Positions 11,600 through 43,874 are shown, counted from the first letter of the stretch. The stretch is DNA of 64,000 nt from Escherichia coli (GCF_003334785.1 NZ_QOWV01000001.1); one strand, 5' to 3'. Notes: generated from the sequence alone by a model not told the origin. Translations and numbers: made by a program.

Positions 11600-12385
11600 A
11601 TGCAGGATCGCAATTTTGATGATATTGCGGAAAAGTTTTCCCGTAACATTTACGGCACCACCAAAGGGCAGCTTCGACAGGCTATTCTGTGGCAGGATCT
11701 CGATCGCGTGCTGGCGGAAATGGGCCCGCAAAAACTGCGTGTGCTGGATGCTGGCGGTGGAGAAGGGCAGACCGCAATCAAAATGGCCGAGCGTGGGCAT
11801 CAGGTCATTTTATGCGATCTTTCTGCGCAGATGATCGACCGCGCAAAACAGGCGGCAGAAGCAAAAGGTGTGAGCGACAACATGCAATTTATACATTGCG
11901 CCGCTCAGGATGTTGCTTCGCATTTGGAAACGCCCGTTGATCTGATATTGTTCCATGCGGTGCTCGAGTGGGTGGCTGATCCCCGCAGCGTATTGCAGAC
12001 CCTGTGGTCAGTGTTGCGTCCAGGCGGCGTGTTGTCGTTAATGTTCTACAATGCGCATGGTTTGTTGATGCATAACATGGTCGCCGGGAATTTTGATTAC
12101 GTGCAGGCGGGAATGCCGAAAAAGAAAAAACGGACGCTTTCGCCAGATTATCCACGCGACCCGGCGCAGGTTTATCTGTGGCTGGAAGAAGCTGGTTGGC
12201 AAATTATGGGTAAGACAGGCGTTCGCGTGTTTCATGATTATCTGCGCGAGAAACACCAGCAGCGCGACTGCTATGAAGCATTACTTGAATTAGAAACGCG
12301 TTATTGCCGTCAGGAACCGTATATTACCCTGGGGCGTTATATTCATGTCACCGCGCGCAAACCGCAGAGCAAGGATAAAGTATGA
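11600..12385 (+). CDS. cmoM: SAM-dependent methyltransferase (tRNA cmo5U methyltransferase, formerly SmtA)
   Basis: SAM-binding motif VLDAGGGEG; start placed at ATG 11600 after SD ggtggag; first gene of the muk operon. Confidence 0.85.
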
Positions 12386-13704
12386 GTGAATTTTCCCAGA
12401 CAGTCCCCGAACTGGTTGCCTGGGCCAGAAAAAATGACTTCTCCATCTCGCTGCCGGTAGACCGACTCTCTTTTCTGCTGGCGGTTGCCACGCTGAACGG
12501 CGAGCGTCTGGATGGTGAGATGAGTGAAGGCGAGCTGGTGGATGCATTCCGCCATGTGAGTGATGCGTTTGAGCAAACCAGCGAAACCATCGGCGTGCGC
12601 GCCAATAACGCGATCAACGACATGGTGCGTCAACGTCTGCTGAACCGCTTTACCAGCGAGCAGGCGGAAGGGAACGCAATTTACCGTCTGACGCCGCTCG
12701 GCATCGGCATTACTGACTACTACATCCGTCAGCGCGAGTTTTCTACGCTGCGTCTTTCTATGCAGTTGTCGATTGTGGCGGGTGAGCTCAAACGCGCAGC
12801 AGATGCCGCCGAAGAGGGCGGTGATGAATTTCACTGGCACCGTAATGTCTATGCGCCACTGAAATATTCGGTAGCAGAAATTTTCGACAGTATCGACCTG
12901 ACGCAACGTCTGATGGACGAACAGCAGCAGCAGGTGAAGGACGATATCGCCCAGTTGCTGAACAAAGACTGGCGGGCGGCGATTTCCAGCTGTGAATTGT
13001 TGCTTTCGGAAACTTCCGGAACGCTGCGTGAATTGCAGGATACGCTGGAAGCGGCAGGCGACAAATTGCAGGCTAATCTGTTGCGCATTCAGGATGCGAC
13101 GATGACCCATGACGATCTGCATTTCGTCGATCGTCTGGTGTTCGATCTGCAGAGCAAACTCGATCGTATTATCAGTTGGGGCCAGCAATCCATCGACTTG
13201 TGGATTGGCTACGACCGCCACGTACACAAATTTATTCGTACCGCGATCGATATGGATAAAAACCGCGTCTTTGCTCAGCGGTTACGTCAGTCGGTACAAA
13301 CCTATTTTGATGAGCCGTGGGCGCTAACTTATGCCAATGCCGATCGTCTGCTGGATATGCGTGACGAAGAGATGGCACTGCGCGATGAAGAAGTGACTGG
13401 GGAACTTCCTGAGGATCTGGAATACGAAGAGTTTAACGAGATCCGCGAACAGCTGGCGGCGATCATCGAAGAACAACTTGCCGTGTACAAAACCAGACAA
13501 GTGCCGCTGGATCTTGGTCTGGTGGTACGCGAATATCTGTCACAGTATCCGCGTGCACGTCACTTTGACGTTGCGCGTATTGTTATTGATCAGGCGGTAC
13601 GTCTTGGCGTAGCGCAAGCAGATTTCACCGGACTGCCAGCGAAATGGCAGCCGATTAATGATTACGGAGCCAAGGTACAGGCGCATGTCATCGACAAATA
13701 TTGA
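12382..13704 (+). CDS. mukF: condensin kleisin subunit MukF
   Basis: 440-aa ORF matching MukF; ATGA overlap with cmoM. Confidence 0.95.
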
Positions 13705-14389
13705 ACAAGTGATGCCGGTTAAGCTGGCGCAGGCGCTGGCGAATCCGTTATTTCCGGCGCTGGACAGCGCCTTACGTTCAGGACGCCATATTGGCCTCGA
13801 CGAACTGGATAATCATGCATTCCTGATGGATTTTCAGGAATATCTGGAAGAGTTTTACGCGCGTTATAACGTTGAGCTTATTCGCGCACCAGAAGGGTTC
13901 TTCTATTTACGCCCACGTTCCACCACGCTGATCCCTCGTTCCGTCTTGTCGGAACTGGATATGATGGTCGGGAAAATCCTCTGTTATCTCTATCTCAGCC
14001 CGGAACGGCTGGCGAATGAGGGGATTTTCACCCAGCAGGAACTGTACGACGAACTGCTCACCCTGGCCGATGAAGCAAAACTGCTGAAACTGGTGAACAA
14101 CCGTTCAACCGGTTCAGACGTTGACCGTCAGAAGTTGCAGGAGAAAGTACGTTCTTCGCTCAACCGTCTGCGTCGTTTAGGCATGGTGTGGTTTATGGGC
14201 CACGACAGCAGCAAGTTTCGCATTACCGAATCGGTGTTCCGCTTCGGAGCCGATGTGCGTGCTGGCGACGATCCCCGTGAAGCACAGCGTCGCCTGATTC
14301 GTGATGGCGAAGCAATGCCGATTGAAAATCATCTGCAACTCAACGATGAAACCGAAGAGAATCAGCCAGATAGCGGAGAGGAAGAATAA
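13685..14389 (+). CDS. mukE: condensin subunit MukE
   Basis: 234-aa product from ATG 13685; overlaps mukF 3' end by 20 nt; acidic C-terminus. Confidence 0.9.
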
Positions 14390-17300
14390 TGATTGAACGC
14401 GGTAAATTTCGCTCACTGACGCTGATTAACTGGAACGGCTTTTTTGCCCGAACTTTTGACCTTGACGAGCTGGTCACGACGCTTTCTGGCGGTAACGGGG
14501 CGGGTAAATCCACCACCATGGCGGCGTTCGTTACGGCGCTGATCCCCGACCTGACCCTGCTGCATTTCCGTAACACTACGGAAGCCGGGGCCACCAGCGG
14601 TTCGCGCGATAAAGGTCTGCACGGTAAGCTGAAAGCGGGTGTCTGTTATTCGATGCTCGACACCATTAACTCGCGCCACCAGCGCGTGGTGGTCGGTGTG
14701 CGTCTGCAACAGGTTGCCGGACGCGATCGTAAAGTGGATATCAAGCCGTTTGCCATTCAGGGACTGCCGATGTCGGTGCAGCCGACACAGCTGGTGACCG
14801 AAACCCTGAACGAACGCCAGGCGCGCGTGCTGCCGCTTAACGAGCTGAAAGACAAGCTCGAGGCGATGGAAGGCGTGCAGTTTAAACAGTTCAACTCCAT
14901 TACTGATTACCACTCGCTGATGTTCGATCTGGGCATCATCGCGCGTCGTCTGCGCTCCGCATCTGACCGTAGCAAATTCTATCGTCTGATCGAAGCTTCG
15001 CTGTATGGCGGGATCTCCAGTGCCATTACCCGTTCTCTGCGCGACTACCTGTTGCCAGAAAACAGCGGCGTGCGTAAAGCGTTCCAGGACATGGAAGCGG
15101 CGCTGCGTGAAAACCGTATGACGCTGGAAGCGATTCGTGTCACCCAGTCGGACCGCGACCTGTTTAAGCATCTGATCAGCGAAGCCACCAACTACGTGGC
15201 GGCGGACTACATGCGTCACGCCAACGAGCGCCGTGTCCATCTCGACAAAGCCCTGGAGTTTCGTCGCGAGCTACATACTTCGCGTCAGCAACTGGCGGCT
15301 GAGCAGTACAAACACGTCGATATGGCGCGTGAGCTGGCAGAGCACAACGGTGCCGAAGGCGATCTGGAAGCGGATTATCAGGCGGCCAGTGATCACCTGA
15401 ACCTGGTGCAAACCGCACTGCGTCAGCAGGAGAAGATCGAACGCTACGAAGCGGATCTCGATGAGCTGCAGATCCGTCTGGAAGAGCAAAATGAAGTGGT
15501 GGCAGAAGCCATCGAACGCCAGGAAGAGAATGAGGCTCGTGCGGAAGCTGCCGAACTGGAAGTGGACGAGCTGAAAAGCCAGCTTGCTGACTACCAGCAG
15601 GCGCTGGACGTCCAGCAAACGCGCGCGATCCAGTATAACCAGGCGATTGCTGCGCTTAATCGTGCCAAAGAACTGTGCCATCTGCCGGACTTAACCGCCG
15701 ACTGCGCCGCCGAATGGCTGGAAACCTTCCAGGCGAAAGAGCTGGAAGCGACTGAAAAAATGCTCTCTCTTGAGCAGAAAATGAGCATGGCGCAAACCGC
15801 GCACAGCCAGTTTGAGCAGGCTTATCAGCTGGTGGTGGCAATCAACGGCCCACTGGCGCGTAACGAGGCGTGGGATGTCGCTCGCGAACTATTGCGCGAA
15901 GGGGTCGATCAGCGTCACCTGGCAGAGCAGGTTCAGCCGCTGCGGATGCGATTAAGCGAACTGGAACAGCGTCTACGCGAGCAGCAAGAAGCTGAGCGTC
16001 TGCTGGCAGATTTCTGCAAACGTCAGGGCAAGAATTTTGATATCGACGAACTGGAAGCCCTGCATCAGGAACTGGAAGCACGCATTGCCTCTCTTTCCGA
16101 TAGCGTGTCTAACGCCCGTGAAGAGCGCATGGCACTGCGCCAGGAGCAGGAACAGCTGCAGTCTCGCATTCAGAGTTTGATGCAGCGTGCGCCGGTTTGG
16201 CTGGCAGCGCAAAACAGTCTCAACCAGTTGAGCGAACAGTGCGGCGAAGAGTTTACCTCCAGCCAGGACGTCACCGAATATCTGCAACAGTTGCTGGAGC
16301 GTGAGCGAGAGGCGATTGTTGAACGCGATGAAGTGGGCGCGCGCAAAAACGCCGTCGATGAAGAGATCGAACGTTTAAGCCAGCCTGGCGGCTCTGAAGA
16401 TCAGCGTCTGAACGCGCTGGCGGAGCGTTTTGGTGGTGTGCTGCTGTCAGAAATTTATGACGACGTTAGCCTGGAAGATGCGCCGTACTTCTCAGCGCTG
16501 TATGGCCCGTCACGCCACGCCATCGTGGTGCCAGATCTGTCACAGGTAACTGAACACCTGGAAGGCTTGACCGATTGCCCGGAAGATCTCTATCTGATCG
16601 AAGGAGATCCGCAGTCATTCGATGACAGCGTGTTCAGCGTTGATGAGCTGGAAAAAGCGGTAGTGGTGAAAATCGCCGATCGTCAGTGGCGTTATTCACG
16701 TTTCCCGGAAGTGCCGCTGTTTGGTCGTGCTGCGCGTGAAAGCCGTATTGAAAGCCTCCATGCCGAGCGTGAAGTGCTTTCCGAACGCTTCGCCACGCTC
16801 TCCTTTGATGTACAGAAAACTCAGCGTCTGCATCAGGCGTTCAGCCGCTTTATCGGCAGTCATCTGGCGGTTGCGTTTGAGTCTGACCCGGAAGCAGAAA
16901 TCCGTCAACTGAACAGCCGTCGCGTCGAACTGGAGCGGGCGTTAAGTAATCATGAAAATGATAACCAGCAGCAGCGTATTCAGTTTGAGCAGGCGAAAGA
17001 GGGCGTTACGGCGCTGAACCGCATTCTGCCGCGTCTCAACCTGTTGGCTGATGACAGCCTGGCGGATCGCGTCGATGAAATCCGCGAACGTCTGGATGAA
17101 GCCCAGGAAGCCGCGCGTTTTGTTCAGCAGTTTGGCAATCAACTGGCGAAACTGGAACCGATTGTTTCGGTATTGCAGAGCGACCCGGAACAGTTCGAAC
17201 AGTTAAAAGAAGATTACGCGTACTCTCAGCAGATGCAGCGCGATGCCCGTCAGCAGGCGTTTGCCCTGACGGAAGTGGTGCAGCGTCGTGCGCACTTTAG

Positions 17301-18849
17301 CTATTCTGACTCGGCAGAAATGCTTAGCGGTAACAGCGATCTCAACGAAAAACTGCGTGAACGTCTGGAACAGGCGGAAGCGGAGCGTACCCGCGCTCGC
17401 GAAGCGTTGCGCGGTCACGCAGCGCAGTTGAGTCAGTACAACCAGGTGCTGGCTTCGCTGAAAAGTTCTTACGACACCAAAAAAGAGCTACTCAACGATC
17501 TGCAACGTGAATTGCAGGATATCGGCGTGCGTGCTGATAGCGGGGCAGAAGAGCGGGCGCGTATTCGCCGTGACGAGCTGCATGCGCAACTGAGCAATAA
17601 CCGTTCACGCCGCAATCAACTGGAAAAAGCGCTTACCTTCTGCGAAGCGGAGATGGACAACCTGACCCGCAAACTGCGCAAGCTGGAGCGGGATTACTTT
17701 GAGATGCGCGAGCAGGTAGTGACCGCCAAAGCGGGCTGGTGTGCGGTGATGCGCATGGTGAAAGATAACGGCGTTGAGCGCCGCTTACACCGTCGTGAGC
17801 TGGCTTATCTCTCCGCTGATGATTTGCGTTCCATGTCGGATAAGGCGTTAGGTGCGCTGCGTCTGGCGGTGGCGGATAACGAACATCTGCGCGACGTGCT
17901 GCGCATGTCGGAAGATCCGAAACGTCCGGAGCGTAAAATTCAGTTCTTCGTGGCGGTTTATCAGCATCTGCGTGAACGTATTCGTCAGGATATTATTCGT
18001 ACCGATGATCCGGTGGAAGCTATCGAACAGATGGAGATTGAACTTAGCCGTCTGACCGAAGAATTAACCTCCCGTGAACAGAAACTGGCGATCAGTTCCC
18101 GCAGCGTGGCGAACATCATTCGCAAAACCATTCAGCGCGAGCAGAACCGTATCCGTATGCTCAACCAGGGGTTGCAGAACGTATCGTTTGGTCAGGTGAA
18201 CAGCGTGCGTCTCAACGTGAACGTGCGTGAAACGCACGCCATGCTACTGGATGTGCTCTCTGAACAGCACGAGCAGCATCAGGATCTGTTTAACAGCAAC
18301 CGTTTGACCTTCTCGGAAGCGCTGGCGAAACTGTATCAACGTCTTAACCCGCAGATTGATATGGGGCAGCGCACGCCGCAGACCATCGGTGAAGAACTGC
18401 TGGATTACCGCAACTATCTGGAAATGGAAGTTGAGGTTAACCGTGGTTCCGATGGCTGGCTGCGCGCAGAGTCTGGTGCATTGTCGACCGGTGAGGCGAT
18501 TGGTACCGGTATGTCGATTCTGGTGATGGTGGTACAAAGCTGGGAAGATGAATCTCGCCGCCTGCGCGGTAAAGATATCTCTCCTTGCCGCCTGCTGTTC
18601 CTCGATGAAGCAGCGCGACTGGATGCTCGTTCTATCGCCACGCTGTTTGAATTGTGTGAGCGTTTGCAAATGCAACTCATCATCGCAGCGCCGGAAAATA
18701 TCAGCCCGGAGAAAGGCACCACCTATAAACTGGTGCGTAAAGTCTTCCAGAATACCGAACACGTTCATGTCGTCGGCCTGCGAGGATTTGCGCCGCAACT
18801 CCCTGAAACGCTTCCAGGAACTGACGAAGCGCCTTCTCAGGCGAGTTAA
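14389..18849 (+). CDS. mukB: SMC-like chromosome partition protein MukB
   Basis: 1486-aa ORF, N-terminal Walker [10 protein letters not shown], long coiled-coil arms, C-terminal LLFLDEA Walker B; TAATG overlap with mukE. Confidence 0.97.
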
Positions 18850-18854
18850 AATTA

Positions 18855-18885
18855 AGGCGGCAGCAATGCCGCCTTTTCTTTTTCC
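18855..18885 (+). terminator. rho-independent terminator of the muk operon
   Basis: Hairpin aaggcggc-agcaat-gccgcctt followed by ttctttttcc. Confidence 0.75.
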
Positions 18886-19109
18886 GAAAACTCCGTTTCT
18901 GCACTAAAAAAGTGGCACATTACGGCGCGCTTTTCTTTAAACTTCTTTACATTAGGTTATGTAAAAACGTATCGGCGTTTATATACTGAAGATAAGCCTG
19001 ATGAGTAACAGGCTTGCTCGTCATACTTTCGTGAGTATTGGCGTTGTACAGGCAAGTCGTAAAATAACAGCCTGGCTATTCAGAGTATGATAAAAACAGG
19101 GGGCAAGGG

Positions 19110-22457: not shown

Positions 22458-22492
22458 AAAATCGTGCAAATTCAAAATATTGCAGGGGACGC

Positions 22493-22521
22493 GTAGGCCT
22501 GATAAGCGTAGCGCATCAGGC
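22493..22521. repeat. REP element in inverted orientation (with the previous one forms a BIME-like unit)
   Basis: gtaggcctgataagcgtagcgcatcaggc, reverse-complement-like to the first REP. Confidence 0.75.
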
Positions 22522-37277: not shown

Positions 37278-40973
<3,696 letters not shown>

Positions 40974-42777: not shown

Positions 42778-42799
42778 TTTTTTTGCCGCAGGTCAATTC

Positions 42800-42863
42800 C
42801 CTTTTGGTCCGAACTCGCACATAATACGCCCCCGGTTTGCACACCGGGAATCCAGGAGAGTTC
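42800..42863 (+). promoter_or_regulatory. pyrD leader with GC hairpin (cccgg-tttgcaca-ccggg) just 5' of the SD aggagag
   Basis: Inverted repeat read directly; consistent with reported start-site-switching translational control of pyrD. Confidence 0.4.
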
Positions 42864-43874
42864 ATGTACTACCCCTTCGTTCGTAAAGCCCTTTTCCAGC
42901 TCGATCCAGAGCGCGCTCATGAGTTTACTTTTCAGCAATTACGCCGTATTACAGGAACGCCGTTTGAAGCACTGGTGCGGCAGAAAGTGCCTGCGAAACC
43001 TGTTAACTGCATGGGCCTGACGTTTAAAAATCCGCTTGGTCTGGCAGCCGGTCTTGATAAAGACGGGGAGTGCATTGACGCGTTAGGCGCGATGGGATTT
43101 GGATCGATCGAGATCGGTACCGTCACGCCACGTCCACAGCCAGGTAATGACAAGCCGCGTCTCTTTCGTCTGGTAGATGCCGAAGGTTTGATCAACCGTA
43201 TGGGCTTTAATAATCTTGGCGTTGATAACCTCGTAGAGAACGTAAAAAAGGCCCATTATGACGGCGTCCTGGGTATTAACATCGGCAAAAATAAAGATAC
43301 GCCAGTGGAGCAGGGCAAAGATGACTATCTGATTTGTATGGAAAAAATCTATGCCTATGCGGGATATATCGCCATCAATATTTCATCGCCGAATACCCCA
43401 GGATTACGCACGCTGCAATATGGTGAAGCGCTGGATGATCTCTTAACCGCGATTAAAAATAAGCAAAATGATTTGCAAGCGATGCACCATAAATATGTGC
43501 CGATCGCAGTGAAGATCGCGCCGGATCTTTCTGAAGAAGAATTGATCCAGGTTGCCGATAGTTTAGTTCGCCATAATATTGATGGCGTTATTGCAACCAA
43601 TACCACACTCGATCGTTCTCTTGTTCAGGGAATGAAAAATTGCGATCAAACCGGTGGCTTAAGTGGTCGTCCGCTTCAGTTAAAAAGCACCGAAATTATT
43701 CGCCGCTTGTCACTGGAATTAAACGGTCGCTTACCGATCATCGGTGTTGGCGGCATCGACTCGGTTATCGCTGCGCGTGAAAAGATTGCTGCGGGTGCCT
43801 CACTGGTGCAAATTTATTCTGGTTTTATTTTTAAAGGTCCGCCGCTGATTAAAGAAATCGTTACCCATATCTAA
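42864..43874 (+). CDS. pyrD: dihydroorotate dehydrogenase (quinone), class 2
   Basis: 336-aa product from ATG 42864 ([21 protein letters not shown]...). Confidence 0.96.

Follow-up and report, generated by a model that had tools for sequence, protein, structure and literature searches.

A 64,000-nt stretch of Escherichia coli DNA (GCF_003334785.1, NZ_QOWV01000001.1), hereafter the window, carries cmoM (also named smtA) followed by mukF, mukE, and mukB, and the junctions between these four genes are the subject of this analysis. All positions are window coordinates, and the four operon genes lie on the plus strand (Table 1). The four proteins matched their NCBIfam equivalog models over their full lengths and above the cut-offs, in the co-directional order cmoM, mukF, mukE, mukB, which confirmed the gene identities given in a preliminary description of the window. 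SmtA has been shown to be CmoM, the cmo5U34 tRNA methyltransferase (PMC4737166). Several complete E. coli chromosomes matched positions 11400-14600 with 100% identity, and each of the 5426 complete E. coli genomes carried the locus. The RefSeq coding sequence (CDS) limits of a matching strain, which aligned collinearly over window positions 1-25600 (3 mismatches), coincided with all four gene limits, and a mechanical list of open reading frames (ORFs) gave the same gene ends as our reading of the sequence. Judged by the sequence, the ORF list, and the RefSeq annotation, the preliminary description had placed the overlaps at the three junctions exactly to the base. The locus is therefore the textbook E. 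coli cmoM(smtA)-mukF-mukE-mukB operon, which is already known.

Table 1. Genes, junctions, and sequence elements of the cmoM-mukF-mukE-mukB locus (SD, Shine-Dalgarno)
Feature	Position	Strand	Description and evidence
GGAG, SD-like	11590..11593	+	6 nt 5' of the cmoM ATG; anti-SD duplex -6.4 kcal/mol
cmoM (smtA)	11600..12385	+	tRNA cmo5U34 methyltransferase, 261 aa, leads the operon; NF008264 equivalog, 504 bits (cut-off 366); RefSeq CDS
AAGGA, mukF SD	12371..12375	+	in the cmoM 3' end, 6 nt 5' of the ATG; duplex -5.2 kcal/mol
TAA within GGATAA	12376..12378	+	mukF frame; cmoM stop of the +3 species
ATGA, mukF start over cmoM stop (-4)	12382..12385	+	mukF ATG 12382-12384, cmoM TGA 12383-12385 (sequence)
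mukF	12382..13704	+	kleisin, 440 aa; NF003615 equivalog, 844.9 bits (cut-off 407); RefSeq CDS
mukF codons 1-17	12382..12432	+	near-zero synonymous variation; ten-codon windows 0.07-0.14 vs ~0.6 operon mean; 76 Enterobacteriaceae species
Second, out-of-frame TGA in ATGAGTGA	12387..12389	+	cmoM stop of the -8 species (junction alignment, spacing counts)
Conserved block centred on the mukE start	13645..13714	+	~-40 to +30; synonymous entropy 0.00-0.13; alignment of 52 distinct sequences
GGAGCCAAGG, SD-like motifs for mukE	13666..13675	+	GGAG 15 nt and AAGG 9 nt 5' of the ATG; duplex -5.8 kcal/mol, long spacing
mukF/mukE overlap, 20 nt (-20)	13685..13704	+	mukE ATG 13685-13687, mukF TGA 13702-13704 (sequence)
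mukE	13685..14389	+	KITE subunit, 234 aa; NF003602 equivalog, 412.3 bits (cut-off 250); RefSeq CDS; PDB 3EUH identical, residues 1-234
Alternative in-frame ATG (Met10)	13712..13714	+	225-aa MukE, +7 gap; no SD (-0.2 kcal/mol); judged not the main start
GGAGAGGAAG, purine-rich SD region of mukB	14375..14384	+	duplex -6.6 kcal/mol; also codes the acidic MukE tail
TAATG, mukE stop over mukB start (-1)	14387..14391	+	TAA 14387-14389, ATG 14389-14391, shared A (sequence)
mukB	14389..18849	+	SMC-like ATPase, 1486 aa; NF003422 equivalog, 2646.7 bits (cut-off 699); RefSeq CDS
Intrinsic-terminator-like hairpin	18854..18885 (hairpin 18854-18875)	.	9 bp (6 G-C) plus T-run; 5 nt past the mukB stop; also scored on the minus strand

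The junctions were compared across 80 Enterobacteriaceae loci, one per species, in which the genes were placed by tblastn, and the 77 complete loci were counted. The mukF/mukE spacing was -20 with an ATG start in 77 of 77 species. At mukE/mukB, a spacing of -1 was found in 72 species, -4 in three, and -8 in two. The cmoM/mukF junction took three values, -8 (32 species), -4 (9 species), and +3 (36 species), and the ATGA arrangement is confined to Escherichia and a few others. The SD motif AAGGA ahead of mukF was invariant in all distinct sequences of the 77 loci, amid cmoM codons that vary. As the alignment indicated, the CmoM C terminus is variable, and any arrival frame terminates at the mukF ribosome-binding site, all three frames being stopped within 17 nt around the mukF start. 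The cmoM stop stays near that start because ATGAGTGA gives TGA in two frames and GGATAA gives TAA in the third. In one species, mukF Ser2 was replaced by Asn (AGT to AAT), with both TGAs kept.

The locus search, which used a 6-sequence MukE alignment, returned Enterobacteriaceae only, and the more distant lineages are represented by 11 loci taken individually, whose start sites are the gene caller's choices. Among these, the -20 spacing at mukF/mukE recurred in an Erwinia-type locus (L093; cmoM/mukF -8, mukE/mukB 0), in Rahnella (L094; -4 at both other junctions), and in Candidatus (Ca.) Symbiodolus (L087; cmoM/mukF -8, mukE/mukB -7). In the remaining loci, the mukF/mukE and mukE/mukB spacings were, respectively, +34 and -1 in L084 (69% MukE identity, no upstream cmoM), +85 and -1 in L086, +52 and -17 in L095, +56 and +138 in L096, -8 and -4 in L089, -32 and -11 in L090, +1 and -8 in Psittacicella (L091), and -4 and -4 in L092. 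Within this sample, the -20 overlap was thus restricted to Enterobacterales lineages, while close or overlapping mukE/mukB junctions were widespread; spacing was retained in the 77 related species, and the pattern was looser outside Enterobacterales. The position of cmoM at the head of the operon is lineage-specific. Some metagenomic MukE homologues (P0127, P0130, P0133, P0136, and L096 798-2303) were 450-574 aa long, with N-terminal MukE domains and a long C-terminal extension, and in L096 mukB follows only after the 138-nt gap.

Synonymous variation was then expressed as the normalised entropy of synonymous codons, using codon alignments of the four genes and ten-codon windows (n = 2385). 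The mean entropy per operon gene was 0.57-0.62, and the 1st percentile of the windows was 0.198. The 21 lowest windows (0.00-0.14) all fell at two sites, one comprising mukF codons 1-17 and the other the last 20 codons of mukF together with the first 10 of mukE. By comparison, the 5' ends of the control genes cmoM, mukB, ycaR, kdsB, ycbJ, elyC, and ldtD had entropies of 0.32-0.63, the two sides of the -4 junction control ycaR/kdsB gave 0.46 and 0.61, and the mukE/mukB junction was mildly constrained (0.33-0.46). Only 4-8 nt of the mukF 5' block are shared with cmoM. The block around the mukE start reaches 40 nt 5' and 10 nt 3' beyond the dual-coding 20 nt; therefore, dual coding alone is an insufficient explanation. 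Its span is roughly as expected for a 30S binding site, and it probably represents the mukE translation initiation region. The -20 arrangement and this block of about 70 nt are under strong purifying selection across Enterobacterales, and the junction can still be recognised in Erwinia, Rahnella, and Ca. Symbiodolus. As candidate causes of the constraint at the mukF 5' end, an alternative-frame ORF was rejected since the other forward frames are closed at once by TGA, and an antisense ORF was rejected since the minus-strand ORFs (12343-13227 and others) are far longer than the 50-nt block.

Each downstream start is preceded by an SD-like motif located within the 3' end of the preceding gene, with anti-SD duplexes of -5.2 to -6.6 kcal/mol over all starts including that of cmoM. 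The motif GGAGCCAAGG ahead of mukE was near-invariant even at the third codon positions of mukF, and only position 13672 varied (A/G, giving Lys/Arg in mukF). Opening energies calculated in the manner of plfold were 5.4 kcal/mol for the mukF region and 5.0 kcal/mol for the mukB region, relative to a background mean of 11.3 and a 5th percentile of 6.6, so that these two initiation regions are predicted to be unusually open. Single-sequence folds were no better than those of shuffled sequences at either the mukF/mukE (z = -0.61) or the cmoM/mukF junction (z = +1.04). RNAalifold, applied to 60 and 69 distinct sequences, returned weak helices without compensatory changes, the latter because the blocks hardly vary. 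Folding and alignment folding thus revealed no stable, significant, or covarying structure hiding the mukE site, and Rfam gave no match at its gathering threshold over 11400-19000.

The assignment of the four genes to one transcription unit has long-standing support. smtA-mukF-mukE-mukB is named as a single operon in the literature, credited to Yamanaka et al. 1995/1996 (PMC4255302, PMC3871593). Placing Para in place of the promoter 5' of smtA raised MukB-mYpet 6.3-fold (PMC7163298), and in a MukB-repletion strain the T1-T2 terminators were put before mukB, limiting readthrough from the smtA promoter (PMC4738335). In Dickeya, native nanopore RNA reads showed one transcription unit (PMC9239193), and a smtA-mukFEB operon is likewise predicted in Vibrio fischeri. 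Co-transcription rests on this literature, which, together with the terminator-like hairpin 3' of mukB and a scan that gave no consensus promoter inside the operon, supports the single operon headed by cmoM that had been proposed for the window. Transcription would start from a promoter upstream of cmoM and end at the hairpin after mukB, with cmoM probably a co-transcribed passenger whose product stays outside the MukBEF complex. The hairpin is terminator-like on both strands, having a T-run on the plus strand and a weaker one on the minus strand, and is followed by a 260-nt gap to ldtD.

The overlaps as such are ordinary. Counted by hand in the window annotation, overlaps occur at 11 of about 38 co-directional junctions and measure 4 nt at six of these, the overlapping pairs being msbA/lpxK, ycaR/kdsB, three of ssu, elfC/elfG, ycbV/ycbF, pqiB/pqiC, and the three muk junctions. 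Among prokaryotic spacings, -4 clearly dominates, with -1 and -8 next in frequency (PMC12548453). The start/stop overlaps described here are of the commonest bacterial kind, and what stands above chance is the evolutionary retention of the junction spacings, not the overlaps themselves. ATGA-type -4 overlaps also occur at msbA/lpxK (6429-6432) and ycaR/kdsB (8915-8918).

We considered how the junctions may act in translation. The reading we favour, with a probability of roughly 80%, is that of the known operon with individually tuned initiation regions, in which upstream translation helps rather than dictates. Translational coupling in the muk operon is plausible. In reporter work, coupling was most efficient between -4 and +3, dropped strongly as the overlap grew from -4 to -25, and was absent at -25 (PMC12548453). 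Since the -4 and -1 spacings belong to the most efficient class, some coupling is likely at cmoM/mukF and mukE/mukB, where ribosomes ending the upstream gene would probably aid downstream initiation, as in ordinary coupling, because the site is kept unfolded, ribosomes are re-used locally, or both. These two junctions fall in the spacing class of -8 to +10 (typically -4 or -1), and mukF/mukE at -20 does not. There, mukE would most likely be initiated mainly de novo on its own conserved region, with upstream ribosomes contributing at most RNA opening; a ribosome that stops at 13702-13704 would sit over part of the site where mukE is initiated. The SD-like motif that each downstream start possesses makes independent initiation at least possible. 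Because the complex contains MukB, MukE, and MukF at 4:4:2 (PMC8602292), the individual initiation regions, not 1:1 reinitiation, probably determine relative subunit output: the complex takes up about two MukE and two MukB for each MukF, which a 1:1 hand-over would fail to deliver. Profiling under depletion of ribosome recycling factor (RRF) has been taken to argue against reinitiation as the chief route of coupling in E. coli (PMC7538156). Our literature search found no paper on translational coupling, or on ribosome profiling, that names the muk operon genes.

Several observations weigh against this reading. The SD-like motifs of mukE are spaced non-optimally, at 9 and 15 nt, and the plfold opening energy of the mukE site (10.5 kcal/mol) makes it no more open than average, which would fit dependence on upstream translation better than free de novo initiation; the prediction is a weak hint that ribosomes completing mukF might assist mukE initiation by unfolding the RNA. 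In 77 of 77 species, the cmoM stop lies within -8 to +3 of the mukF start, a pattern expected from selection for coupling, and E. coli gene pairs spaced at -8 to +10 are 4.5-fold enriched for complex subunits (PMC10666635). The consensus promoter scan that found no promoter inside the operon found none upstream of cmoM either, and is thus weak on the matter of internal promoters.

The closeness of the cmoM stop to the mukF start, the enrichment of complex subunits, and a mukE site that is not predicted to be open lend some credit to the stronger proposal that all three junctions work by tight termination-reinitiation, with ribosomes handed along the whole series from cmoM through mukF and mukE to mukB and fixing stoichiometric subunit amounts. 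It would also draw on the -4 and -1 spacings as classic coupled configurations (PMC12548453). We nevertheless regard it as unlikely. A 4:4:2 complex demands mukE and mukB products at about twice those of mukF, which pure reinitiation presumably cannot supply; the mukF/mukE spacing lies where coupling is strongly reduced toward its loss at -25; CmoM is not a subunit of the complex; ATGA occurs in only 9 of 77 species; and SD-like motifs stand before every start. The preliminary description had suggested tight coupling appropriate for a stoichiometric MukBEF. Of this, the association of short overlaps with heteromeric complexes (PMC10666635) holds, whereas "tight" and "stoichiometric" are doubtful given the 4:4:2 ratio, the -20 overlap, and the SD motifs of the individual genes. 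The opposite proposal takes the overlaps as neutral by-products of genome compaction and stop-codon drift, with no role in expression and with independent translation. The drift of cmoM/mukF among -8, -4, and +3 behind a variable cmoM C terminus would suit it, as would the ranges outside Enterobacterales (mukF/mukE -32 to +85, mukE/mukB -17 to +138), the ease with which -4 overlaps evolve (PMC12548453), and the -4 junction of ycaR/kdsB without synonymous constraint. Yet the -20 spacing is invariant in the 77 species and kept in Erwinia, Rahnella, and the fast-evolving Ca. Symbiodolus, synonymous constraint around the mukE and mukF starts is extreme, and no sampled species has its cmoM stop more than 8 nt from the mukF start, which makes this neutral origin quite improbable. 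The Keio/pKD13 deletion design keeps the last codons of a gene and supplies a ribosome-binding site and a start, leaving a short ORF that ends at the native stop. Because such an ORF still ends there, the fact that the Keio delta-cmoM::Km strain grows in lysogeny broth (LB) at 37 C (PMC4737166) was not decisive as evidence against cmoM-to-mukF coupling, and the argument was dropped.

The two constraint blocks and the choice of mukE start allow further alternatives to the favoured reading of individually tuned initiation regions. That mukF codons 1-17 and positions 13645-13714 are undescribed cis-acting RNA elements, such as a site bound by a regulator or by MukEF itself, a standby site, or a processing site, is given a small chance; both blocks could be merely demanding ribosome-binding sites. 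If true, such elements might set the MukF:MukE:MukB output of about 1:2:2 post-transcriptionally. As for the start, mukE has four in-frame candidates, ATG 13658, ATG 13685, GTG 13709, and ATG 13712, and the length of the overlap depends on the choice. In many species, AAT/AAC variation in the mukF frame has removed ATG 13658, and some species carry ATG, GCG, or TTT instead of GTG 13709, while ATG 13685 and ATG 13712 are both invariant in the Enterobacteriaceae alignment. Were mukE to start at ATG 13712, the protein would have 225 aa, the 20-nt overlap would not exist, and a 7-nt gap would follow the mukF stop, a spacing within those compatible with coupling (PMC12548453). A 225-aa MukE has been expressed and solved (PDB 7V8P), and 3RPU was tagged at Met10. 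The 234-aa E. coli form is the one in 3EUH, 9GMB, and 9GMD, so the mukE start has evidently been handled as ambiguous or inconsistently, with two N termini among the solved structures. Against the shorter form, ATG 13712 has no SD, and the centre of the conserved block falls on 13685; the His codon that overlaps ATG 13685 could be CAC, yet it is always CAT, which leaves that ATG invariant. Moreover, in the rapidly evolving Enterobacterales symbiont Ca. Symbiodolus clandestinus, whose MukE is about 55% identical, the ATGTCATCGA...TGA overlap is preserved and the Met10 position holds no Met, other, more distant MukE homologues have N termini of comparable length without that Met, and the longer form appears in RefSeq and in the Photorhabdus chain of 7NYW. 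Comparative data thus favour ATG 13685 as the mukE start, and initiation at 13712 appears very improbable.

Other features of the window were recorded as well. ycbJ (plus strand) and elyC (minus strand) are convergent, with a 24-nt overlap (10685-10708) just 5' of the cmoM promoter region. The ORF of matP (56581-57033, 150 aa), whose product displaces MukBEF from the terminus region, was confirmed about 38 kb downstream of mukB. Rfam matches at the gathering threshold were the small RNA ES036 (CssrF), which lies between gloC and aspC (22458-22500), and, ahead of pyrD, the PyrD leader (42796-42869). Relative to strain 300709, the window showed indels of +1 nt at about 25622, in a hairpin downstream of asnS, of +1 nt at about 37750-37800 in elfC, which is frameshifted in that strain and possibly intact here, and of about 34 nt in the elfG region at about 39400-39475.

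As it stands, the finding is of little weight, since the operon, its order, and its CDS limits are in every E. coli annotation and short overlaps are how bacterial operons are built by default. Comparative support for ATG 13685 is useful because the field uses two MukE lengths, 234 and 225 aa. Because positions 12371-12432 and 13645-13714 are strongly constrained at the nucleotide level, they should be spared when the locus is engineered by tags, deletions, or promoter swaps. How one mRNA yields the subunit ratio of a 4:4:2 condensin is a small question that the analysis raises.

Compared with the E. coli smtA-mukFEB operon as described (Yamanaka et al. 1995/1996, cited in PMC4255302, PMC3871593, and PMC9239193), the locus has the same genes, order, strand, CDS boundaries, and overlaps and differs in nothing; what is added here is a comparison of the junctions among species and a description of the blocks of synonymous constraint. 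Within the same window, ssuEADCB resembles the muk operon in its run of short spacings (-8, -4, +10, -4), and msbA/lpxK, ycaR/kdsB, and pqiB/pqiC are each at -4, like cmoM/mukF. ycaR/kdsB, the only such junction tested, had no unusual synonymous constraint, unlike the two ends of mukF. With the termination-reinitiation pairs (-4 ATGA and -1 TAATG/TGATG; Huber et al. 2019, 2023; Brown and Wade 2025), cmoM/mukF and mukE/mukB share the overlap motifs and an internal SD-like motif, and MukE and MukB are subunits of one complex, a class enriched among such pairs. However, mukF/mukE at -20 lies outside the range of -8 to +10, CmoM is no partner of MukF, and MukBEF needs its B, E, and F subunits at 2:2:1, not 1:1:1. 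The mukF/mukE pair resembles the longer-overlap pairs whose coupling is explained by RNA unfolding or backward scanning, such as MS2 coat/lysis at -50 (PMC12548453), in having its second start well within the first gene, so that ribosomes finishing mukF must traverse and unfold the mukE initiation region. It departs from them in that folding found no sequestering structure at mukE and the plfold evidence is weak.

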